32,116 bases of DNA from positions 1 through 32,116 of the forward strand of contig JBBIOM010000022.1 in assembly GCA_037443365.1 (NCBI GenBank), given 5' to 3'. This document shows positions 4,401 through 19,738 of this stretch, one piece after another. The notes beneath the pieces are model-generated. The model was not told where the DNA came from. It searched no databases and saw only the letters and a list, made by a program, of their open reading frames with translations. Source of the DNA: Armatimonadota bacterium (lineage in GTDB: Bacteria; Sysuimicrobiota; Sysuimicrobiia; Sysuimicrobiales; Humicultoraceae). The position numbers and the translations under genes were made by a program. Positions within the stretch are counted from its first letter, which is position 1, and the number at the start of each line of letters is the position of its first letter.

Positions 4401-5069
4401 CGCGCGATCGAGGAGCACGCCGCCGTAAGCGAGCGCCTGGAAGCGCTGCGCGGCCGCGCGCAGGACGTCCGAGCCGCCGCGGAGTCGCTCCGGCAGTCAA
4501 TCACGCTCATCAACGCCGCGCTGCGCGTGCGGTTCGATCAGTCCTTCGTGGAGGTCGACCGCGAGTTCGGCCGGCTCTTCCAGCAGCTCTCCGACGGGGG
4601 GCGCGGGTCCCTGGAGCTGGTCGAGGACGAGCTGGGCGCGGAGCCGGGGCTGGAGGTGATCGTCCAGCTCCCCGGCAAGAAGCGCCGGTCCCTGGTCGCG
4701 CTCTCAGGTGGGGAGCGCGTGCTGGTGGCCCTGGCCCTGATCTTCGCGATGCTTCGCGTACACCCCAGCCCGTTCTGCATCTTCGACGAGGTGGAGGCCG
4801 CCCTCGACGACGAGAACACCCGACGGTTCACCGACCTGCTGCGCGATCTGTCCCGGCAGACCCAGGTGTTGATCATCACGCACAACAAGGGCACGATGGC
4901 TGCTGCAGACGTGCTCTACGGCGTGACGATGCAGGAGCTGGGCACTTCTTCGCTGGTCTCGGTGCGGCTGGTCCCGTCCCGGAACGGGCAGGAGCCTGCC
5001 CCGCGACATGAGCCAGGGGTCAGGGAACCCTCCCGGGAGCGTGAGACGGTTGCCCTTCCGGCGGATTAG
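1437..5069 (+). CDS. smc: Chromosome segregation protein SMC
   Basis: Walker A GPNGSGKSN, Q-loop IGQG, long coiled coils around a central hinge, signature LSGGE, Walker B/D-loop FDEVEAALD, ITH; SD GAGGAGG upstream of GTG; directly precedes ftsY. Confidence 0.97.
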   Translation: MQLRRLELVGFKTFVERTELEFHPGITAIVGPNGSGKSNIMDGIRWVLGETNARLLRGARMDDVIFAGTALRRPHGLARVALTLENGAGDLPLEFSEVTVSRTVTRGGEGEYAINGVDCRLRDIQMLFLGTGLGGRSYALIGQGEVDSVLRATPQERRQWLEEAAGLARQKRQRTEAERRLGHSQAHLDRAGDLIGELDAQQQVLAVQAEAATLYRTHTEELRNLDLALYADEARRLLGAARRLAASLSSEKERAALSTARVEAAAAAAADVRERVDSLSTQWEEGQQALLGGAEEIAARAADVVQAERRIEALRAHHQHLADEIARLQEEHARASGDAEGLRLQAAGVADDLESQRRCLSEAAAGLTDAARAAEEAESHLALARRDAGDVARTLAQARSDLAGLCARAEMLGQAASGTEKRAEALREAAARVSGALETARQACAQARVEREEADASLARAAAEAERCRRDLDACLERLRAAEMEEHGLRARLASLEEAHAGFADFEEGARSVLLAARADPGRFPGMLGALADLVEVPDEYQAAIAAALGRRLHCLVAESRAAIQGVCAFLEAEGSAGVALLAMDTVRAHHLAAPAASQEGLVRASDVVTADAAMRPVVDALLGDAVIVPGLERAWDMFAAGFPGRIVTRDGALLSPDGVLSIRGRRRGDAMPLGRNQALAAHRAAADAASSHREGTQAQHADAARNAAAASAALSARTTESVAAAAALNERVAHLAQLEASSARLAADEAALAEEAAARRREFESSRAEADRLTADARHLEEEAGGLEARLVELEQEARGRSAARDASAQAVAARQVALAQAEGVLESLHARLRDREVALAEIEARRDACCDDAEWMRADLDAASERLREAAAAHAAAASEQASGKSRLERLAAERAELRDVLVVREEEHKAAVAAARESEAALHRTELRCAQADAELAAAASRLGEQYGITLEEAASRRLESSREDARRRLDELRGAIRDLGPVNLRAIEEHAAVSERLEALRGRAQDVRAAAESLRQSITLINAALRVRFDQSFVEVDREFGRLFQQLSDGGRGSLELVEDELGAEPGLEVIVQLPGKKRRSLVALSGGERVLVALALIFAMLRVHPSPFCIFDEVEAALDDENTRRFTDLLRDLSRQTQVLIITHNKGTMAAADVLYGVTMQELGTSSLVSVRLVPSRNGQEPAPRHEPGVREPSRERETVALPAD

Positions 5070-5088: not shown

Positions 5089-6003
5089 ATGGAAGCGACA
5101 TCAACACCCCCTGGTTGGTTCGCCCGGCTGCGCGCATCACTCGGGCGTACGCGCGAGGCGATCGCCTCGCGCATCGACGCCCTGCTTCAGGCGCCCCCAG
5201 ACGACGCGTTCTTCGAGGGTCTAGAGGAGGCTCTGATCCAAGCCGACATGGGCCCAGCGCTTAGCGCCGAGATTGCGCAGCGCCTGCGTCAGGATCCCAC
5301 GGCGCGCACGCCCGGAGCCCTGCGCGCCGGGCTTGGCGCGATCCTGCGCGAGCTGCTGGGCGCGCCAGGAGCGCTGCGCCTCGGCCCGGCTCCTGCCGTG
5401 GTGCTGGTCCTGGGAGTGAACGGTTCGGGCAAGACCACGACGATCGGCAAGCTCGCCTTCAGGCTGCGCCAGGAAGGCCGCCAGGTGATGCTGGCCGCAG
5501 CCGACACGTTCCGCGCCGCGGCGATCGAGCAGCTCGAGCTCTGGGGCGAGCGCACGGGCGCCCCGGTCGTGCGGCACCGGGCCGGGAGCGATCCTGCGGC
5601 CGTGGTGTTCGACGCGGCCCAGGCGGCCTCGGCGCGGGGCTTCGACGTGCTCGTCGTCGACACCGCCGGACGGCTGCACACCAAGGTCAACCTGATGGAG
5701 GAGCTCAAGAAGATCGACCGGGTGCTGGCGCGCGCGCTGCCTGGCTCGCCTGTCGAGCGCCTGCTCGTGCTGGACGCCACAACAGGCCAGAACGGCCTGG
5801 CCCAGGCCCGTCGCTTCCACGAGGCAGTCGGCATCACAGGGGTCGTTCTCGCGAAGTTGGACGGCACCGCGAAGGGCGGGATTGCCGTGGCCATCACCCG
5901 GGACCTGGGCGTCCCGATAACCTTCGTGGGCACAGGAGAGGCCCCGGACGATCTCGTGCCCTTCGACCCTGAGGCGTTCGCAACCGCCCTGCTTGCCCCC
6001 TAG
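5089..6003 (+). CDS. ftsY: SRP receptor FtsY (short form, no acidic A domain)
   Basis: N-terminal amphipathic WFARLRASLGRTRE; GVNGSGKTTT, DTFRAAA, DTAGR, DATTGQNG, KLDGTAKGG. Confidence 0.97.
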   Translation: MEATSTPPGWFARLRASLGRTREAIASRIDALLQAPPDDAFFEGLEEALIQADMGPALSAEIAQRLRQDPTARTPGALRAGLGAILRELLGAPGALRLGPAPAVVLVLGVNGSGKTTTIGKLAFRLRQEGRQVMLAAADTFRAAAIEQLELWGERTGAPVVRHRAGSDPAAVVFDAAQAASARGFDVLVVDTAGRLHTKVNLMEELKKIDRVLARALPGSPVERLLVLDATTGQNGLAQARRFHEAVGITGVVLAKLDGTAKGGIAVAITRDLGVPITFVGTGEAPDDLVPFDPEAFATALLAP

Positions 6004-6036
6004 AGCGCGCTTCTGAGGGGCTGGCCTGCCTCCACC

Positions 6037-6066
6037 TTGACTATTGCGCCATCCCTGCGCTATCGT
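6037..6066 (+). promoter_or_regulatory. Putative sigma70-type promoter for the ylxM-MTase/ffh operon
   Basis: TTGACT (6037-6042), 18 nt spacer, TATCGT (6061-6066) in the ftsY-ylxM intergenic region. Confidence 0.55.
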
Positions 6067-6073
6067 GAGGGGG

Positions 6074-6097
6074 CTGTCAAGGGGATTGACTTGACAG
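6074..6097. promoter_or_regulatory. Perfect inverted repeat, putative operator
   Basis: CTGTCAAG (6074-6081)-N8-CTTGACAG (6090-6097), between the predicted -10 and the ATG at 6108. Confidence 0.65.
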
Positions 6098-6107
6098 ATG
6101 AGGGAAC

Positions 6108-6968
6108 ATGGAGCGCGCGCTGGCCGACAGGGACCGGGCCAACCGGATGTTCGACGCCTACGGGGCGCTGCTGACCGAGCGGCAGCGGCGCCTGCTGCGG
6201 CGCTACTATCAGGACGACCTGTCGCTCGGCGAGATCGCCTCACTGATGCGCGTGAGCCGCCAGGCCGTGCACGACGGCCTGCGCAGGGCCCTGGCGGCCA
6301 TGGAGCGTCTGGAGGGAGCGCTGGGGCTGGCGGAGCGAGGTGACCACTACTCCACGAGTGCGCCGCGCTCGAAGCCGCGTGCGCGGGAGCTTCGGGTCGA
6401 GCTGCGGGGCCGGACGTGGACCTTCCAGGCCGCATCCGGCGTCTTCGCGCACCGCCGGTTCGACGCCGGGACGCGACTGCTCGTGGAGGCGATGCAGGTG
6501 CGCCCCCGGGACCGCATCCTGGACCTGGGATGCGGCTACGGCGCGATCGGCCTGGTGGCCGCATCGCTCGCGCCCCTTGGCCGTGCCTGGCTCGTGGATC
6601 TGAACCAGCGCGCGGCGCGCCTGGCGTGCGCCAACGCCGCGGTGGCTGGGCTCACCAACGCCTGCGTGCTTGTGGGCGACGGCGCGGCCCCGTTTCAGGA
6701 CGCCTGTTTCGAAGTGGTGCTCACCAACCCGCCGATCAGGGCCGGGCGGCGGGTTGTCGTGGAGTTCATCGAGGGAGCGTGGCGGGTGCTCAGGCCCAAC
6801 GGTCGGTTCTACATGGTGGCGCGCACCGCGCAGGGTGCGCGCACGCTCGCGAAACTCGTGGCCGAGAAGTTCGGTGAAGCGCGCGAGGTGCGTACTTCCG
6901 GGGGGTACCGCGTCTACAAGGCGCGGCGCAGGCGCGCCGCCCCTCATGAGGTGACCGGCGGTGTTTGA
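6108..6968 (+). CDS. Fusion of a YlxM (UPF0122) HTH domain and an RsmC/YbxB-like class I SAM methyltransferase
   Basis: aa ~1-77 match YlxM (FDAYGALLTERQ..YYQDDLSLGEIA..VSRQAVHD). The remainder matches the small MTase domain (DHY, SGVF..RFDAGTRLL, LDLGCGYG, TNPPIRAG). Occupies the ylxM position between ftsY and ffh. Confidence 0.9.
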   Translation: MERALADRDRANRMFDAYGALLTERQRRLLRRYYQDDLSLGEIASLMRVSRQAVHDGLRRALAAMERLEGALGLAERGDHYSTSAPRSKPRARELRVELRGRTWTFQAASGVFAHRRFDAGTRLLVEAMQVRPRDRILDLGCGYGAIGLVAASLAPLGRAWLVDLNQRAARLACANAAVAGLTNACVLVGDGAAPFQDACFEVVLTNPPIRAGRRVVVEFIEGAWRVLRPNGRFYMVARTAQGARTLAKLVAEKFGEAREVRTSGGYRVYKARRRRAAPHEVTGGV

Positions 6969-8280
6969 GGCGCTGCAGTCCCGGCTGGGGGAGATCTTCC
7001 GCAAGATAGCCGGCCGGGGAACGCTCAGCCCCGAGGACGTGGACGCGGCGCTGCGCCAGGTGCGCATGGCCCTGCTCGAGGCCGATGTGAACTTCCGCGT
7101 GGCCCGCGAGTTCGTTGAGGGCGTGCGCGCGGCCGCGGTCGGGCAGGAGGTGTGGAAGCACCTGAACCCCGGCCAGCAGGTGATCAAGATCGTGCACCAG
7201 GAGATGATCCGGCTCCTGGGCGGGCAGGCGCGCGAGCTCCGCAGGGCCGCAGCGCCTCCCACGGTCATCCTGCTCGTGGGTCTGCACGGCGTGGGCAAGA
7301 CCACGACCGCGGGGAAGCTGGCCGGCTACCTGAAGCGCCGGGGCCGCACGCCGCTCCTCGTGGCCACCGACCTGAAGCGGCCGGCCGCGATCCGGCAGCT
7401 CGAGATCGTCGGCGACCATGTAGGGGTCCGCGTGTTCGCCCTTCGCGGGGAGACGGACTCGATTGGTGTGGCGCGAGCCGCGGTGGCCGCAGCCGCTGCG
7501 GACGGGCATGACGTGGTCATTGTGGATTCGGCGGGGCGGCTGCACGTGGACGACGAGCTGATGGCCGAGCTTGCCACGATGCACTCCGCGCTTGCCCCGC
7601 ATGAGACCCTGCTTGTGCTGGACGCGATGGCTGGGCAGGACGCCGTGCGCATGGCCGAGCAGTTCGGCTCGCGAATGCCGCTCGATGGCGTGGTGCTCAC
7701 CAAGCTCGACGGCGATGCCCGTGGCGGCGCGGCGCTCTCGGTCGTGGCCACGATCGGGCGCCCGATCCTGTTCGTCGGGGTGGGAGAGAGGCCCGACGCC
7801 CTGGAGAGGTTTCACCCGGACCGCATGGCATCGCGCATACTGGGGATGGGCGACCTGCTGACGCTGATCGAGCGCGCGGAGGCGGCCGTCTCGGCCGAGG
7901 ACGCGGCCGAGATGGAGCGCAAGCTGCGCCGGCAGCAGTTCACCCTGGGCGACTTCCTGGAGCAGCTGCGCCAGGTGCGCAGGATGGGGCCGCTGGACCA
8001 GCTGCTGGAGATGATCCCGGGCTTCGGCCGCATGCGCGAGGCCGGCGCCCAGGTGGACGAAGGGCAGCTCCGGAAGATCGAGGCCATGATCCAGTCCATG
8101 ACGCCGCGGGAGCGCGACTCGCCGACCGTGATCGACGGAAGCCGCCGTCGCCGCATCGCGCGGGGGAGCGGGGTGACCGTGCAGGATGTCAACCGGCTGT
8201 TGAAGCAGTTCGAGCAGGCACGCCGCCTCATGCGGCAGGTGGCGGCGCGCAAACCCAAGGAGGCAGAAAGATGGCTGTGA
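6961..8280 (+). CDS. ffh: Signal recognition particle protein Ffh
   Basis: [49 protein letters not shown]-domain [18 protein letters not shown]. Confidence 0.98.
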
Positions 8281-8558
8281 AGATCCGACTCATGCGAACC
8301 GGAGCCAAGCACCAACCGTCGTACCGGGTCGTGGTGGCCGACTCGCGTACCCCCAGGGGCGGCAGGTACATCGAGGCGCTCGGGCACTACAACCCCAGGA
8401 CCGAGCCGTCCACCATTCAGATTGACGAGACGAAGGTGCGTTCCTGGCTCGAGCGGGGCGCCCGGCCCTCGGACGCGGCCCGCGTGCTGCTGGTCAAGAC
8501 CGGCATCCTCCCGCGCTGGGAGGCCGATCGGTCGGGCGGCGAAGAGCGCCCGGGGTAG
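8271..8558 (+). CDS. rpsP: 30S ribosomal protein S16
   Basis: [47 protein letters not shown] inside the ffh 3' end. Confidence 0.97.
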
Positions 8559-8564
8559 AGCGTC

Positions 8565-8825
8565 ATGCCGGGGGCTGATCTGAGGGCGTTGGTCGAGTAC
8601 CTGGTCCGGGGATTGGTGGACGACCCAGGGGCGGTCGGCGTGAGAGCGGCCGAGCGCGACCGTCTGGTGACGATCGAGATCAGGGTGGCCGCAGGCGACC
8701 TGGGCAAGGTCATCGGCCGCCGCGGACGCATCGTGGGGGCGATTCGCACCCTCGCCCGGGCCGCGGGCGCATCCGACGGTCGGCGCGTTGTGGTGGAGAT
8801 CGCGTCGCAGTCTAGCCGGGAGTAG
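8565..8825 (+). CDS. khpA: KH-domain RNA-binding protein KhpA (YlqC)
   Basis: LVEYLVRGLVDDP, DLGKVIGRRGR (KH GxxG loop), AIRTL; canonical position after rpsP. Confidence 0.92.
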   Translation: MPGADLRALVEYLVRGLVDDPGAVGVRAAERDRLVTIEIRVAAGDLGKVIGRRGRIVGAIRTLARAAGASDGRRVVVEIASQSSRE

Positions 8826-8836
8826 CGGAGGCGGGC

Positions 8837-9241
8837 ATGGGGATAACCGTTGTTCGACCCGTAATCGTGAAGGCCATAGTCACGGAGGCGTTCAAGAAGC
8901 AGTACATGAGCGAGATCGAGGACACCGTTCGGCGTCTCGACGCCGTGATCTCGCAAATCGACACGCAGATCCGGCGCTCCGAGCTGGAGCGCCAGGTCAG
9001 CCCGCAGTCGCGCGCGATCCGTCAGCAGCTCGAGGTGGAGCGTTCGCGGCAGGAAGCCGCGCGCATGGAGCTCGCCGCGCGCATGAAGGAGGCCGAGGGG
9101 CTCGAGCTCCAGTCCGAGTTCTCTCAGGGCACCCTGGAGAGCATTGTCGAGCTGGGCGTCGGGGACAACTTCTTCACGCGCATGGCGCGGGCCGAGGTAG
9201 TGATCAAGGATGGGATCGTCATCGAGATCCGCGAGGACTGA
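8837..9241 (+). CDS. ylqD: YlqD-family protein
   Basis: RPVIVKAIVTEAFK, central coiled coil, [23 protein letters not shown]; located between khpA and rimM. Confidence 0.88.
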   Translation: MGITVVRPVIVKAIVTEAFKKQYMSEIEDTVRRLDAVISQIDTQIRRSELERQVSPQSRAIRQQLEVERSRQEAARMELAARMKEAEGLELQSEFSQGTLESIVELGVGDNFFTRMARAEVVIKDGIVIEIRED

Positions 9242-9779
9242 AGCCGGGTCGCCCGACCCGGCCGGCCTTGTCACGGTGGGACGCGTGGTCAGGCCGCACG
9301 GGCTGCGCGGTGAGGTGAGGGTGCGCCTGGAGACGGACTTCCCGGAGCGCTTCGCCCACCTCGGGGAGGCATACCTTGTGCGGGCGGGACAGGCCGAGGC
9401 GATCGAGATCACCGGCAGCCGGCCGCACAAGGACGGCCTGCTGGTGACCATCCGGGGATTCGACGACCTGGAGGCGGCCGAACGACTGCGCGGCGCGGAC
9501 ATCGCGGTGCCCCGCGACGCCGTCGTGCCGCTCGGGGAAGGCGCCTACTACGTCTTCGAGATGGTGGGCCTGCGCGTGCGGACCGAGGAGGGACGGCGGC
9601 TTGGCACCCTCTGCGAGGTGCTGCGCGGTCCGGCCAACGACGTCTACGTCGTCCGGGGCGAAGGGGGCGAGATCCTGCTGCCCGCCACGCGCGAGGTTGT
9701 GCGTCGGGTGGATCGGGCCTCGGGCGAGATGATCGTCGCCATCCTGCCCGGTATGGAGGAGCAGGAAGTTGCGCGTTGA
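9210..9779 (+). CDS. rimM: Ribosome maturation factor RimM
   Basis: [44 protein letters not shown]; start overlaps ylqD and is uncertain. Confidence 0.95.
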
Positions 9780-10494
9780 GGTAGTGACCATCTTCCCGGA
9801 GGCGCTCGCCCCGCTCGAGGTCTCGATACTGGGCCGCGCGCGTGCGCGGGGACTGGTCGAGATCTCGGTCGTGGACCTGCGCGACTTCACGTCCGACCGC
9901 CACCGTCAGGTGGACGACCTGGCGTACGGGGGCGGCCCTGGGATGGTCATGAAGCCCGAGCCGTTCTTCGCCGCGGTGGAGGCGCTGACGCGCCCCGGGG
10001 AGACGCGCCCGCGCGTGCTGCTGACCTCCCCGCAGGGCCGGCGCTTCGACCAGGCCACCGCGGAGGAGCTCTCGCGCGAGCGGCACCTGATCGTGCTCTG
10101 CGGCAGGTACGAGGGAGTGGACGAGAGGGTGGTGGAGGGCCTCGGCGCCGAGGAGATATCAGTAGGCGACTACGTCCTGACCGGCGGCGAGATCGCGGCC
10201 ATGGTAATAGTGGATGCCGCGGTGCGTCTGATCCCCGGCGTGGTGGGCGATGCGGGCTCGGTAGCGGCCGAGTCGTTCGCCGGAGGGCTGCTCGACTACC
10301 CGCACTACACGCGCCCGGCCTCATTTCGCGGGCTTAGCGTGCCCGAGGTGCTGCTGGGAGGGAACCACGAGGCAATCCGGCGCTGGCGCCGGAGGGAGCA
10401 ACTGCGCCGCACGCTCACCCGGCGGCCGGATCTACTTCGCTGGGAGGCCCTGAGCGAGGAGGACCGCGCGCTGCTGCGCGACGATGACGCCTAG
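9769..10494 (+). CDS. trmD: tRNA (guanine37-N1)-methyltransferase TrmD
   Basis: TTG start after [58 protein letters not shown]. Confidence 0.97.
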
Positions 10495-10512
10495 GGCGGG
10501 CTGTGCTACAAT
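10484..10512 (+). promoter_or_regulatory. Putative internal promoter for rplS
   Basis: ATGACG (10484-10489), 17 nt spacer, extended -10 TG-C-TACAAT (10504-10512). Confidence 0.55.
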
Positions 10513-10568
10513 CACGAACTGTGACTGCGGCGCCGCACGACGCGTCGGGCAAGAGGGAGGCGGAAGTG

Positions 10569-10910
10569 ATGGACAAGCTCAAGGTGGTGGAGGCCGGTCA
10601 GGTCAAGAAGAAGGTAGCGGCCTTCGCTCCCGGCGACACCGTGCGGGTCCACATGCGCGTCACCGAGGGCGGGCGCGAGCGCGTGCAGGCGTTTGAGGGC
10701 ACGGTGATCGCGCGTCGGGGCGCGGGCGCGAACGAGTCGTTCACCGTGCGGCGCATCAGCCATGGGATCGGAGTGGAACGCATCTTCCCACTGCACTCGC
10801 CGCGCGTCGAGAAGATCGACGTGGTTCGCCGCGGGCGCGTGCGGCGTGCCAAGCTCTACTTCCTCCGGGGAAAGGTGGGCAAGGAGGCGCGCATCAAGGA
10901 ACGGCGCTAG
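10569..10910 (+). CDS. rplS: 50S ribosomal protein L19
   Basis: [52 protein letters not shown] 10569 follows SD GGGAGG. Confidence 0.97.
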
Positions 10911-16039: not shown

Positions 16040-17157
16040 GCGGGCTCGTAGGGGCACAGGGGATCCTCGGCCAGGACGTCACCGGTGTGCGCGAACGCCC
16101 GGGCCCTCGATCCTCCGCAGATCACCCTGTACTCGCAGCGCCCGCATCTGCCATGCAGCCGCGACGTGTCGCGCAGCGCGGTGAAGAGTGGGTTTGAGCG
16201 GTAGATCTCAGGCAGGGAGCCGCTCCGCACGTTGCCCGCGGACAGCGGGAGGAACCCCGACGGTGCCACCTCGCCGGTCCTTGAGATGAACATGATGCCG
16301 TTGCCGTCACGGATGCCGAACCCCCGTCCGACGCTGCTGCGTTGCACCTGGGCGCCATCCATCCCCGCGGCCTGCATCCGCGCCAGCGCCACGCGCCGGT
16401 AGTGCGGGGCCTCGGTCGTCTTGATCGCGAAGGGCGCCCGCTCGCTCTGGTCGTAGATCCAGTCCATCAGGCATTCCGCGTCATGGGGCGCCATCTCGCG
16501 AAGGGAGGTCCCGCGCCCCACCGAGATCAGGAAGAACAGGCTCCATCTCTCCACGGGCAGCGACGCCAGCAGATCGTAGATAGCCGGCAGGTCGGGTGCG
16601 GTCTCCGAAGTCACGAGCGTGTTGATCTGGAGCGGGATTCCTGCCGCGGTGACCCAATCCACGGCCCGCATCGTCAGATCGAAGCAACCCGGCACGCCGC
16701 GGAACGCGTCGTGACGATCGGGGTTCGAGCCGTCGAGGCTCAGCGACATGCTCTGGATGCCGGCCTCGCGCAGGCGCTCGACGGCTTCCGCGGTCAGCAG
16801 GCTCGTGCCGCTGGGCGCCAGCGAGACCCCGATTCCCAGGCGCCCGGCTTCCTCTATCAGGTCGTGCAGGTCGGCCCTCTTGAGCGGATCGCCGCCGGTG
16901 AGCACCAAGTGCGGCAGCGGGCGGCCGAACTTCGGCACCTGCCGCAGCAGCGCGCAGGCCTCGCCGGTCGTCAGCTCGTCCGGGTCGCGATTCACCATCG
17001 CCTCCGCGCGGCAGTGGCGGCAGGCCAGATCGCAGGCCCGGGTGAGCTCCCAGTAGATGAGCATGGGTGCCCTGGCGTACTCGTGTCCAGCCTGCGCCGC
17101 ACGCACCGCCTCGTATGACGGCTCGGCCGCGCCAGGCCGGATGCGCGAGGGATGCAT
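16036..17157 (-). CDS. Radical SAM protein with partial SPASM domain, AhbD/NirJ-like (resembles the TIGR04053 family)
   Basis: WELTRACDLACRHCRA (CxxxCxxC), LTGGDPL, SLSLDG, C-terminal CGRCEYRVICGGSRARA..EDPLC; start ATG 17157 or GTG 17160, coupled to the hemL stop. Confidence 0.88.
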   Translation of the reverse strand: MHPSRIRPGAAEPSYEAVRAAQAGHEYARAPMLIYWELTRACDLACRHCRAEAMVNRDPDELTTGEACALLRQVPKFGRPLPHLVLTGGDPLKRADLHDLIEEAGRLGIGVSLAPSGTSLLTAEAVERLREAGIQSMSLSLDGSNPDRHDAFRGVPGCFDLTMRAVDWVTAAGIPLQINTLVTSETAPDLPAIYDLLASLPVERWSLFFLISVGRGTSLREMAPHDAECLMDWIYDQSERAPFAIKTTEAPHYRRVALARMQAAGMDGAQVQRSSVGRGFGIRDGNGIMFISRTGEVAPSGFLPLSAGNVRSGSLPEIYRSNPLFTALRDTSRLHGRCGRCEYRVICGGSRARAFAHTGDVLAEDPLCPYEPA

Positions 17158-18473
17158 CACCGGGCCGCCTCCGCGAACGCGCCCCGCGCCGCCGCGAGCG
17201 TGCGCGCGACGTCCTCCTCGGTGTGCGAGGCCGAGACGAACCATGCCTCGAACTGCGAGGGCGGGACGAGCACTCCCTTGGAGAGCATCGCCCTGAAGAA
17301 CCGCGCGAAACGGGACGTATCGGCCGTCCTGGCCGTAGCGTAGTCGCGCGGCGGCTCCTTCGTGAAGAACACCGTCAGCATCGAGGCCACGTGGGCAACC
17401 GACGCCACGCACCCTGCCTCGGCCGCGGCCTGGGCGAGCCCCAGCGCAAGGCGCGAAGTGAGCGCGTCGAGGCGCGCGTAGAACGCCGCGTCAGCCAGGC
17501 GCCGAAGCGTCACGACCCCGGCCGTCATGGCCAGCGGATTCCCGGAGAGGGTCCCTGCCTGGTAGACCGGGCCCAGCGGCGCCACGGTCTCGATCACATC
17601 ACGCCGCCCGCCGTAGGCACCCACAGGCAGCCCTCCGCCGATGATCTTGCCCAGACAGACGAGGTCGGGCCTGATGCCGAAGCGCGCCTGCGCGCCCCCC
17701 TGTCCAAGCCGAAATCCGGTGATGACCTCGTCGAAGATCAACAGCGCGCCCTCGCGAGAAGTGATCTCGCGCAGCCCCTGCAGGAACCCGCCTGCCGGCA
17801 TCACCACGCCCATGTTGGCCGCCACGGGCTCGACGATCACCGCCGCGATTGCCCCGGGGTTGGCCGCGAACAGCGCCGTTGTGGCGTCCAGGTCGTTGTA
17901 CTCCGCCACCAGCGTGTCGGCCACCGCGGGGGCCGGGACGCCGGCGCTGCTGGGCAGCCCGAAGGTGGCCACGCCGGAGCCTGCCTGGGCCAGCAGCGGA
18001 TCGGCGTGGCCGTGGTAGCAGCCGGCGAACTTGATGATCTTGTCACGCCCCACAAACCCCCGCGCCGCGCGGATCGCGCTCATCGAGGCCTCGGTCCCGG
18101 AACTGACGAAGCGCATGCGCTCCATCGCCGGGACCGCCCCTCGGATGAGGCGGGCCAGTTCGACCTCCTCGGACGTGGGCATCCCGTAGCTGGTTCCTGC
18201 CGCGGCCCGCTGTCCGATGGCTGCCACCACCTGCGGGTCGGCATGCCCCAGCACAAGCGCCCCCCACGAGCCCACGTAGTCGAGGTACTTGCGGCCGTCG
18301 AGGTCGGTCAGATACGCGCCGCGCGCGGAACGCACGACGATAGGGCTGCCGCCGACCGCGCGAAACGCCCGCACCGGGCTGTTCACCCCTCCGGGGAACA
18401 GACCCTCGGCCTCCTCGAAGACGGCCGCGCCCAGCGGCCCCGCGGATGCAAGGTTGTCCATGCGCTGCCTCAC
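17157..18473 (-). CDS. hemL: Glutamate-1-semialdehyde 2,1-aminomutase (alternative start ATG 18461)
   Basis: PGGVNSPVRAF, DYVGSWG, SGTEA, GCYHGH, FDEVITGFR, GKIIGGG (PLP Lys), YQAGTLSGNP, PSQFE. Confidence 0.97.
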   Translation of the reverse strand: MRQRMDNLASAGPLGAAVFEEAEGLFPGGVNSPVRAFRAVGGSPIVVRSARGAYLTDLDGRKYLDYVGSWGALVLGHADPQVVAAIGQRAAAGTSYGMPTSEEVELARLIRGAVPAMERMRFVSSGTEASMSAIRAARGFVGRDKIIKFAGCYHGHADPLLAQAGSGVATFGLPSSAGVPAPAVADTLVAEYNDLDATTALFAANPGAIAAVIVEPVAANMGVVMPAGGFLQGLREITSREGALLIFDEVITGFRLGQGGAQARFGIRPDLVCLGKIIGGGLPVGAYGGRRDVIETVAPLGPVYQAGTLSGNPLAMTAGVVTLRRLADAAFYARLDALTSRLALGLAQAAAEAGCVASVAHVASMLTVFFTKEPPRDYATARTADTSRFARFFRAMLSKGVLVPPSQFEAWFVSASHTEEDVARTLAAARGAFAEAAR

Positions 18474-19738
18474 GCCTCCCCAGGTTCCTCGGAGTCCACC
18501 GCCAGTTCGAAGAGCTCGGCCGCCAGCTCCAGCGTGCGCGCGTCGTTGCGGGCCGCGGATGCGCGCAGGCGCAGGATCGGCGCCTGGAGCAGCCTGCGCG
18601 CCGTGGCCCTGGCTACCACGCGCACCGCGGCGTGCTGCGCTTCGCTCAGGCCGGCCAGGCGCGTGCGCGCGCGGGCAATCTCGCCTTCCGCGACGGCCTC
18701 CGCCCTGCGCTGCAACGCCGCGATCAGTGGAACCGCCCTACGGGACGCCATCCATTCCTCGAACCCTGCCAGGGCCGCCTCCACGATCGCTTCGGCGCGC
18801 GCCAGATCCTCGGGTGCAACCTCTCCCAGGACCGGCTCGCCCTGGAACTGGTCCAGCGCGTGGAGCGTGACTCCCGGCAGCGCGGCTACCGCCGCGTCCA
18901 CGCCGCGCGGAATGCCCAGGTCGATCACCAGCAGCGGGCGGTCCCGGTCCGCTCCGATGGCATCCGGCGACACGAGCGGCCCGTCGGCGCCCACGCAGAC
19001 GACCATCAGGTCAACGCTGCTGCTCATCTCCGCGATCGCCTCGAGGGAAATCGCCCGGGCCCCGGAGGGGGCCCCCAACTCGCGTGCCGCCTCCAGGGTG
19101 CGGTTGGCCACGGCCACGATCCTGGCCCCGCATTCTGCCAGGAGCCTCACAACGATCGATGCGACCTCCCCGGCACCTACCACGAGCGTGGCCCTTCCGT
19201 CCAGTCGGCCCAGCGCGCGCCTGGCGAGCAGTACCGCGGCCCGAGGGATCGAAGGCGCGCCGCGCGACACGCGGGTTTCGCGGCGCACGCGGCGCCCGGT
19301 GGCTATGGACAGCGCGACCAGGCGGTTGAGCACGGGTCCGGTATGACGGCCCTGGCGCGCGAGATCGAAGGCACGTTTCACCTGCCCGAGTATCTGCTCC
19401 TCGCCCAGCACCATCGAGTCGAGCCCGGAGGCGACCCGCAGTATGTGCCGCGCGGCCGTCCTCCCGCTACGCTCGTAGAGCGAGGCCGCAAACGCCTCGG
19501 TCGGGACTCCGCGCGCGGCGGCGAGCGTCCGGGCCACAGCGGCAGTCGGGGGCGCGCCGGGCGTGATCAGGTACGCCTCGGTGCGGTTGCAGGTGGATAT
19601 CAACATCCCCTCAGAGATCCCCTCGTCTCGGCGCAGCGCCTCGAGAACGGGCAACAGGTCCGCTTCCGCGAGGGCCACGCGCTCGCGCACCTCTACAGGC
19701 GCGGTCCTGTGACTGAGCCCGATCGCCGACAGGATCAT
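18470..19738 (-). CDS. hemA: Glutamyl-tRNA reductase
   Basis: GLSHRTAPVEVRE, STCNRTE (catalytic Cys), SGLDSMVLGEEQILGQVK, NADPH motif VGAGE, NRT. Confidence 0.96.
   Translation of the reverse strand: MILSAIGLSHRTAPVEVRERVALAEADLLPVLEALRRDEGISEGMLISTCNRTEAYLITPGAPPTAAVARTLAAARGVPTEAFAASLYERSGRTAARHILRVASGLDSMVLGEEQILGQVKRAFDLARQGRHTGPVLNRLVALSIATGRRVRRETRVSRGAPSIPRAAVLLARRALGRLDGRATLVVGAGEVASIVVRLLAECGARIVAVANRTLEAARELGAPSGARAISLEAIAEMSSSVDLMVVCVGADGPLVSPDAIGADRDRPLLVIDLGIPRGVDAAVAALPGVTLHALDQFQGEPVLGEVAPEDLARAEAIVEAALAGFEEWMASRRAVPLIAALQRRAEAVAEGEIARARTRLAGLSEAQHAAVRVVARATARRLLQAPILRLRASAARNDARTLELAAELFELAVDSEEPGEA

Follow-up and report, generated by a model that had tools for sequence, protein, structure and literature searches.

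The window analysed here, a stretch of 32,116 nucleotides (nt) of contig JBBIOM010000022.1 from the Armatimonadota bacterium assembly GCA_037443365.1, carries between ftsY and ffh a single open reading frame (ORF) in which a YlxM domain, known from a protein accessory to the signal recognition particle (SRP), continues directly into an RNA methyltransferase resembling YbxB and RsmC (Table 1). The original prediction, made from the sequence alone, had described an in-frame fusion in one unbroken ORF whose stop codon overlaps the start of ffh, and both points are borne out: the ORF of 286 amino acids (aa) matches PF04297 as well as PF05175, and the overlap with ffh amounts to 8 nt. We regard the fusion as a new way of combining two known domain families. 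It is not known to have been described before, and no description turned up in full-text searches of a library that lacks most subscription journals; the phrase 'signal recognition' is absent from a paper on the phylum.

The N-terminal part matches the YlxM/UPF0122 family (PF04297) at aa 7–77 (E 1.5e-19; 70.6 bits against a Pfam cut-off of 22.7), and its score for the NCBIfam YlxM equivalog NF045758 (75.6 bits) lies slightly below the cut-off of 80. It is also similar to the proteins of PDB entries 1xsv and 1s7o (E about 6e-11), and S39, E42, I43 and R51–D56 are among the helix-turn-helix residues that are invariant in an alignment of 83 fused proteins. The usual C-terminal helices had been noted as missing, and indeed only positions 3–73 of the 101 in the Pfam profile are covered, the C-terminal part of the profile being unmatched. 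In most of the phylum (probably Sysuimicrobiota/CSP1-3) YlxM is 110–156 aa long with an additional C-terminal helical stretch, but it measures only 84–92 aa in three genera of the window's family in which ylxM and the methyltransferase gene are separate (split), so that loss of the C-terminal helix is not peculiar to the fusion. No second ylxM was found in the window's genome. The SRP RNA of this genome (G000:C16:46632-46897, minus strand; RF01854, 176 bits, 256 of 256 model positions matched) is of the large, Alu-bearing Bacillus type, though the phylum is not Bacillota.

The C-terminal part matches the MTS methyltransferase family (PF05175) at aa 104–271 (E 1.3e-37; 129.5 bits; profile positions 2–170 of 170) and shares 34–51% identity with 39 stand-alone homologues of 193–216 aa. 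The S-adenosylmethionine (SAM)-binding and NPP motifs, originally described as intact, are so (aa 139–145 and 207–213): D139, G141, C142, G143, Y144 and G145, together with the motif IV residues N207, P208, P209, R211 and G213, are invariant in the 83 fused proteins, while DxGCGYG and NPPIRAG are invariant in the single-domain (n = 40) as well as the fused (n = 83) alignments. The 'DHY' that follows the YlxM part had been taken for the N-terminus of a YbxB-like enzyme, and it equals H3 and Y4, nearly invariant in 40 diverse single-domain homologues. Stand-alone enzymes start 2–20 residues ahead of this conserved HY motif, which in the fusions comes after the linker, so that a whole enzyme and not a fragment has been joined to YlxM.

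The closest solved structure by sequence is MJ0882 (PDB 1dus; E 1.5e-35 over aa 86–274), followed by the Thermus thermophilus two-domain enzyme (3dmf, 2zul), Escherichia coli RsmC (2pjd) and RlmG (4dcm; m2G1835). A Foldseek search with the AlphaFold2 model placed 1dus first by fold too (template modelling score of 0.91 normalised to the target; root-mean-square deviation of 1.7 Å; 191 columns; 38% identity), ahead of RlmG, T. thermophilus RsmC (titled 16S rRNA N2 G1207 methyltransferase) and E. coli RsmC. The NCBIfam RsmC profile (NF007023) is matched at 58.5 bits against a cut-off of 295 and only over positions 169–340 of 342, i.e. its C-terminal half, and Pfam gave no match of the fusion protein to PF08468 (MTS_N) or to a second PF05175. 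Because the second domain and the required score are missing, the enzyme is placed outside the RsmC equivalog, yet it is predicted to be RsmC-like in action. Tandem-MTS proteins of 370–420 aa form separate clusters in the protein search described below; P0121, P0122 and P0130, the next-best clusters (392–405 aa; PF05175 twice in tandem; about 283 bits), represent a different way to double this enzyme.

Homologues from Bacillus timonensis and two Paenibacillus (35–44% identity) sit in the order rplA-rplJ-rplL-methyltransferase-rpoB, and we take the position between rplL and rpoB to be that of ybxB in Bacillus subtilis. According to a 2026 preprint, B. subtilis YbxB is responsible for about one N2-methylguanosine (m2G) per 16S rRNA, placed in helix 34, and ybxB deletion leads to cold sensitivity, streptomycin resistance and an unexplained fall in 2-methyladenosine (m2A) of 23S rRNA (bioRxiv 10.64898/2026.05.25.727669). 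Judging from these homologies, the likeliest product of the methyltransferase part is m2G in 16S rRNA helix 34 (the E. coli G1207 position). No second rsmC, nor any other enzyme of the YbxB/MJ0882/RsmC type, was found in the window's genome (97.7% complete), whose remaining PF05175 matches belong to PrmC, PrmA, RsmD, a spermidine-synthase fusion, ArsM, RsmG and RlmD. The enzyme might instead act on some other guanine or adenine of rRNA or tRNA, or on a protein glutamine, the fusion being no less real for it. PF05175 also includes RlmG, PrmC-like and tRNA N6-methyladenosine enzymes, the entry title of MJ0882 names no target and, according to the preprint, 23S m2A falls upon ybxB deletion; nevertheless, we consider a different substrate improbable given that this is the sole YbxB/RsmC-type enzyme of a nearly complete genome, that the nearest named enzymes after MJ0882 are m2G rRNA methyltransferases and that the Bacillales homologues occupy the ybxB position.

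The AlphaFold2 model, built from the alignment of 83 proteins (mean predicted local distance difference test score, pLDDT, of 86.9; predicted template modelling score of 0.75), consists of helices at residues 2–21, 24–35, 40–47 and 51–72, a coil at residues 73–91 and a Rossmann-type domain with its first strand starting at residue 92. The pLDDT is 68 at residues 71–80 and 79 at residues 81–90. Among the fused proteins the linker ranges from about 0 to 75 residues, with about five in the genus of the window, and is a low-complexity segment enriched in G, A, R and P. Judged from the alignment, a linker this variable would fit two independently acting domains at least as well as coupled ones.

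Contigs in Logan from four sequencing runs (X1–X4, all from one study) were aligned to positions 5600–7400 of the window. The contig of X1, which may be the source sample, spans the entire interval with one substitution at 6043, outside the ORF; those of X2 and X3 cover 6210–6360 without differences, and that of X4 covers 6183–6448 with one substitution (6380 T>C). Neither a stop codon nor an insertion or deletion was found across the junction in the contigs of any of the four runs. Among the 120 clusters listed from a search of 5.8 billion proteins, 87 (the window's included) carry both PF04297 and PF05175 (228–338 aa; 47–100% identity), under such generic database names as 'methyltransferase', '16S rRNA (guanine1207-N2)-methyltransferase' and, twice, 'YlxM family DNA-binding protein'. 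In the ESM Atlas the protein falls in a 51-member cluster whose commonest phylum is Candidatus Sysuimicrobiota. The two-domain protein is genuine. Nothing was found in favour of an error of assembly or sequencing, or of a private read-through of two genes. The assembly behind the window is of the metagenome type and the runs containing this stretch are all from one study, but contigs of three runs besides X1 bridge the junction without insertions or deletions, the same unbroken frame recurs in 21 other genomes and in 86 further protein clusters listed, and the fused state falls in one well-supported clade. The junction contigs, the homologous clusters and the related genomes led us to reject this explanation, the chance of which is negligible.

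The phylum is represented in our collection by 94 species genomes (one order, seven families), 90 of which match the fusion protein at E ≤ 1e-12; the four without a match, among them G015, flagged as unpublished, are 72–96% complete. Frames were read in 88 loci and the window, and exclusion of three loci where the contig ends before ylxM left 86 that could be analysed; the unpublished genome G024, which looks fused in the search tables, was left out of the counts. The gene is fused in 22 of the 86 loci (window included), as ORFs of 282–321 aa, while the remaining 64 have two separate neighbouring genes. The two-gene state occurs in the six other families and in four genera of the window's family, the fusion being kept in eight genera of that family, and relatives are thus not confined to split genes. 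The order ftsY-ylxM-methyltransferase-ffh is maintained phylum-wide wherever the contig allows, an adjacency of ylxM and the methyltransferase gene that the original prediction had missed. Of the 64 split loci, 46 have a 4-nt overlap (RTGA) between the ylxM stop and the start of the methyltransferase gene, in a further 15 this start ranges from a 1-nt overlap to 12 nt past the stop, and in the last three it is 39–149 nt away; an 8-nt overlap between the methyltransferase stop and the ffh start recurs in most loci of the phylum. Because the two genes are adjacent, and mostly overlapping, across the phylum in the 64 split loci, the fusion is a merger of a pre-existing gene pair and not a new juxtaposition. 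In six loci of one other family (L043, L044, L048, L073, L075 and L080) ylxM and the methyltransferase gene lie in the same frame with a single stop codon between them and the next start 0–3 nt past it, i.e. one substitution away from fusion.

Beyond the phylum the two genes were not found together. A scan of species genomes with the alignment of 40 single-domain homologues returned 80 methyltransferase loci: the four with ylxM, ffh or ftsY nearby are of this phylum, and none of these genes was found within 2.5 kb of the methyltransferase in the 76 loci outside it (Bacillota, archaea and others). A YlxM-anchored scan also gave 80 loci, 43 of which have the methyltransferase between ylxM and ffh; their Ffh is at least 62% identical to that of the window, and they are therefore taken as this lineage, whatever the record titles. 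Three loci with the ylxM-methyltransferase-ffh block and Ffh 67–88% identical (L194, L203 and L235) are titled Candidatus Nitrosymbiomonas sp., Pirellulales bacterium and Bacillota bacterium, which probably reflects inconsistencies of naming or binning. No such methyltransferase was found within 2.5 kb on each side of the 37 other YlxM loci (Sumerlaeota, Clostridia, Moorellaceae, Alicyclobacillus and others), where Ffh is 46–56% identical and ffh directly follows ylxM in 34 cases. Among the 150 best representatives of 1.84 billion proteins, only P0065, of this family, has both domains. Four candidates for independent fusions with N-terminal extensions of about 90 aa (P0157, P0184, P0229 and P0252) were rejected, having no YlxM match. 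The longer proteins with a YlxM part numbered 98 (85 of this fusion and 13 longer YlxM), with no other architecture found by this short-word search, which misses distant relatives.

In a tree of the first 300 aa of Ffh (81 rows, five loci with less than 200 aa of Ffh being omitted), all 21 fused rows lie on one side of a branch with a Shimodaira–Hasegawa-like approximate likelihood ratio test (SH-aLRT) support of 99, and one change of state suffices. The fused genomes likewise form one clade in the tree of the methyltransferase domain (85 rows; SH-aLRT 99; one change). On the evidence of both phylogenies, a single origin of the fusion suffices. The simplest history would have three steps. The methyltransferase gene would have been inserted between ylxM and ffh in the ancestor of the phylum, translationally coupled on both sides through the RTGA overlap upstream and the 8-nt overlap downstream; YlxM would then have been shortened within one family; and in one ancestor of that family the ylxM stop and the start of the methyltransferase gene would have been lost, once, so merging the frames, the merged state being inherited by at least eight genera.

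Both domains are under purifying selection. In pairwise comparisons of the 22 fused genes, the YlxM parts are on average 76% and the enzyme parts 67% identical, with a median pairwise ratio of non-synonymous to synonymous substitution rates (dN/dS, NG86) of 0.24 and 0.28 respectively. The stem branch of the fused clade measures 0.42 substitutions per site for the methyltransferase, 0.47 for YlxM and 0.105 for Ffh, the whole-tree length ratios to Ffh being about 2.1 (methyltransferase) and 1.6 (YlxM); two other clades show methyltransferase/Ffh stem ratios of about 2.6–2.7, all of these being figures from quick single-gene trees. A 4-nt overlap leaves two genes a single small mutation short of fusion, and more changes are needed to split a fusion again than to create it, so that retention of the fused state is by itself no proof of an advantage.

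The start codon of the fusion is the point where the N-termini of the 83 fused homologues align. Judged by its genes, the block from ftsY to rplS would be an operon that combines SRP functions with ribosome biogenesis, as it does in Bacillus. Two promoter-like sites were detected between positions 4900 and 12400 (0.2 expected from shuffled sequences), the first just before the fusion and the second immediately upstream of rplS, close to the 3' end of trmD, while no intrinsic-terminator-like site was found in this interval, which reaches from ftsY to rnhB (1.6 expected from shuffles). Elsewhere in the window, two ORFs on the plus strand, of 102 aa (16748–17056) and 759 aa (17067–19346), have no Pfam match at E ≤ 1e-5 and lie among genes of haem biosynthesis (ferrochelatase, URO-D, an amine-oxidase-type oxidoreductase, ALAD and HemD). 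The same genome also encodes, at G000:C8 (L004:1333-2445, plus strand), a 371-aa frame with RsmD (16S m2G966; aa 34–195) followed by CoaD (pantetheine-phosphate adenylyltransferase; aa 212–366), apparently another fusion between genes that are classic neighbours in operons.

Table 1. Features of the ftsY–ffh region of the window, in window coordinates.
Feature	Position	Strand	Basis and remarks
ftsY (SRP receptor), 5' neighbour	5089..6003	+	PF00448 SRP54 GTPase domain, E 1e-75
Promoter-like site TTGACT-18-TATCGT in the ftsY–fusion spacer	6037..6066	+	Match to consensus only
Possible Shine-Dalgarno sequence GAGGGA, before ATG 6108	6100..6105	+	Read from sequence
Fusion ORF	6108..6968	+	ATG start, 286 aa, TGA stop at 6966-6968; uninterrupted (ORF listing, Pfam)
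YlxM (UPF0122) helix-turn-helix domain, aa 1-76	6108..6335	+	PF04297; C-terminal helix missing
Junction/linker AERGDHY, aa 73-79	6324..6344	+	From the 83-protein alignment
Single-domain MTS methyltransferase, YbxB/MJ0882 type, aa 79-275	6342..6932	+	PF05175, similarity to MJ0882
SAM-binding motif I DLGCGYG, aa 139-145	6522..6542	+	Read from sequence
Motif IV NPPIRAG, aa 207-213	6726..6746	+	Read from sequence
8-nt overlap of ffh start (GTG 6961) and fusion stop (TGA 6966-6968)	6961..6968	+	ORF coordinates
ffh (SRP54 homologue)	6961..8280	+	SRP54_N, SRP54 and SRP_SPB domains (Pfam)
rpsP, khpA-like KH, ylqD, rimM, trmD, rplS, 3' of ffh	8271..10910	+	Pfam matches
Signal peptidase I and RNase HII, after rplS	ending 12208		Pfam matches

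With a probability of about 0.6, we read the fusion as a bifunctional protein in which each half continues to do its own work; this figure, like the likelihoods expressed for the other readings, belongs to possibilities that are not mutually exclusive. The YlxM domain would still bind the SRP, the two domains would act largely independently on a flexible tether, and their fusion would be tolerated, or mildly useful through a fixed 1:1 stoichiometry, with no new mechanism involved. The ribosome genes of the operon (rpsP, rimM, trmD and rplS) are such that a 16S rRNA methyltransferase fits among them without any connection to the SRP. The association of the genes and their fusion, being one evolutionary event each, carry little statistical weight for a functional link. 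Several points weigh against this interpretation. Throughout the phylum the methyltransferase gene is tightly coupled to ylxM on one side and ffh on the other, a placement that pure chance of location leaves unexplained, and in the window's genus a linker of about five residues may limit the freedom of the two domains. The helix-34 assignment stands on 35–44% identity to homologues in the ybxB position and on one preprint, while substrate recognition may differ from that of RsmC given the score below the RsmC cut-off and the lack of the RsmC N-terminal domain. Finally, the relatively long stems of both domains are no more than suggestive, but could mean a functional change at fusion and not neutrality.

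An alternative is functional coupling, in which the YlxM domain would serve the enzyme as a targeting or RNA-binding module. The original prediction had likewise proposed that the fusion may couple the SRP to ribosome maturation or redirect the methyltransferase to another RNA such as SRP RNA; the results neither support nor refute this. It could stand in for the non-catalytic N-terminal domain of the two-domain RsmC, an extra domain that RsmC-type enzymes usually carry and that is missing here, or the enzyme could be docked on Ffh or SRP RNA, with methylation tied to the SRP cycle or SRP RNA as substrate. YlxM has been described as a protein accessory to the SRP, specific to Firmicutes and Tenericutes and co-transcribed with ffh (bioRxiv 10.64898/2026.05.13.724699), and the Streptococcus mutans protein is reported to bind Ffh and SRP RNA directly and to modulate GTPase activity, as cited second-hand in PMC8546722. 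Coupling would also agree with the large Bacillus-type SRP RNA of the genome, with the ylxM-methyltransferase-ffh order and its overlapping frames in all analysable loci of the phylum, with retention of the fusion across eight genera under purifying selection on both domains, and with stem branches of both domains that are longer than average at the fusion node; the strong conservation of the shortened YlxM domain leaves room for a functional link. Nonetheless, one insertion plus one fusion make a single evolutionary observation, the length of the linker is unconstrained, and co-regulation with the translation genes is enough to explain the location. Moreover, the methyltransferase is near ylxM, ffh or ftsY in none of the 76 loci outside the phylum, and the 37 YlxM loci there lack it, ffh coming right after ylxM in 34. 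On balance we regard coupling as unlikely, though to be taken seriously. A more specific proposal, that the YlxM helix-turn-helix has been recruited as an RNA- or SRP-docking substitute for the RsmC N-terminal domain, with the m2G enzyme acting on SRP-engaged ribosomes or on the large, Alu-bearing SRP RNA, strikes us as very unlikely. If it held, the phylum-wide coupling of ylxM, the methyltransferase gene and ffh would mean that YlxM takes part, in a way not known before, in modifying RNA or in crosstalk of the SRP with the small ribosomal subunit.

The mechanism of YlxM is still poorly understood, and our finding places this protein in another phylum, alongside a large SRP RNA of the Bacillus type. 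Should the link to the methyltransferase be functional, it would offer a concrete idea, open to testing, of whether YlxM contacts RNA or the small subunit, and a hint of how single-domain YbxB-type enzymes find their substrate; should it not be, the fusion would be a clean, dated example of genes overlapping by 4 nt that became a stable bifunctional protein. In either case it is a convenient marker for one clade of the phylum.

Compared with YlxM of S. mutans (and PDB 1xsv and 1s7o), the N-terminal half of the fusion has in common the PF04297 match, the conserved helix-turn-helix residues SRQAVHD and a location of the gene in the ftsY...ffh neighbourhood. It is shorter (about 76 aa, without the C-terminal helix, against about 110 aa for YlxM) and, unlike the stand-alone protein, continues covalently into an enzyme, so that the methyltransferase part separates it from ffh. 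The literature consulted places YlxM in Firmicutes and Tenericutes, whereas the YlxM of the fusion comes from another phylum.

The enzyme half resembles B. subtilis YbxB, a likeness judged through the B. timonensis and Paenibacillus homologues and not from the B. subtilis sequence itself: both have a single PF05175 domain, about 200 aa in length, that begins with an HY N-terminus and contains DxGCGYG and NPPIRAG. The Bacillales gene is stand-alone in the rplL/rpoB position, whereas its counterpart in the window has its place between ylxM and ffh and is joined to YlxM. The Methanocaldococcus jannaschii protein MJ0882 (1dus) has the same fold, but is an archaeal stand-alone protein of 194 aa without YlxM, titled a hypothetical protein. 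With RsmC (E. coli 2pjd; T. thermophilus 3dmf, 2zul and 2zwv) the fusion shares a homologous catalytic domain (E 1.5e-11 to 9.4e-17; Foldseek probability 1.00) and the same predicted chemistry, N2-methylation of guanine via the NPP motif. RsmC, however, is built from two methyltransferase-like domains (343–381 aa), and in the fusion the N-terminal place is taken by the YlxM helix-turn-helix.

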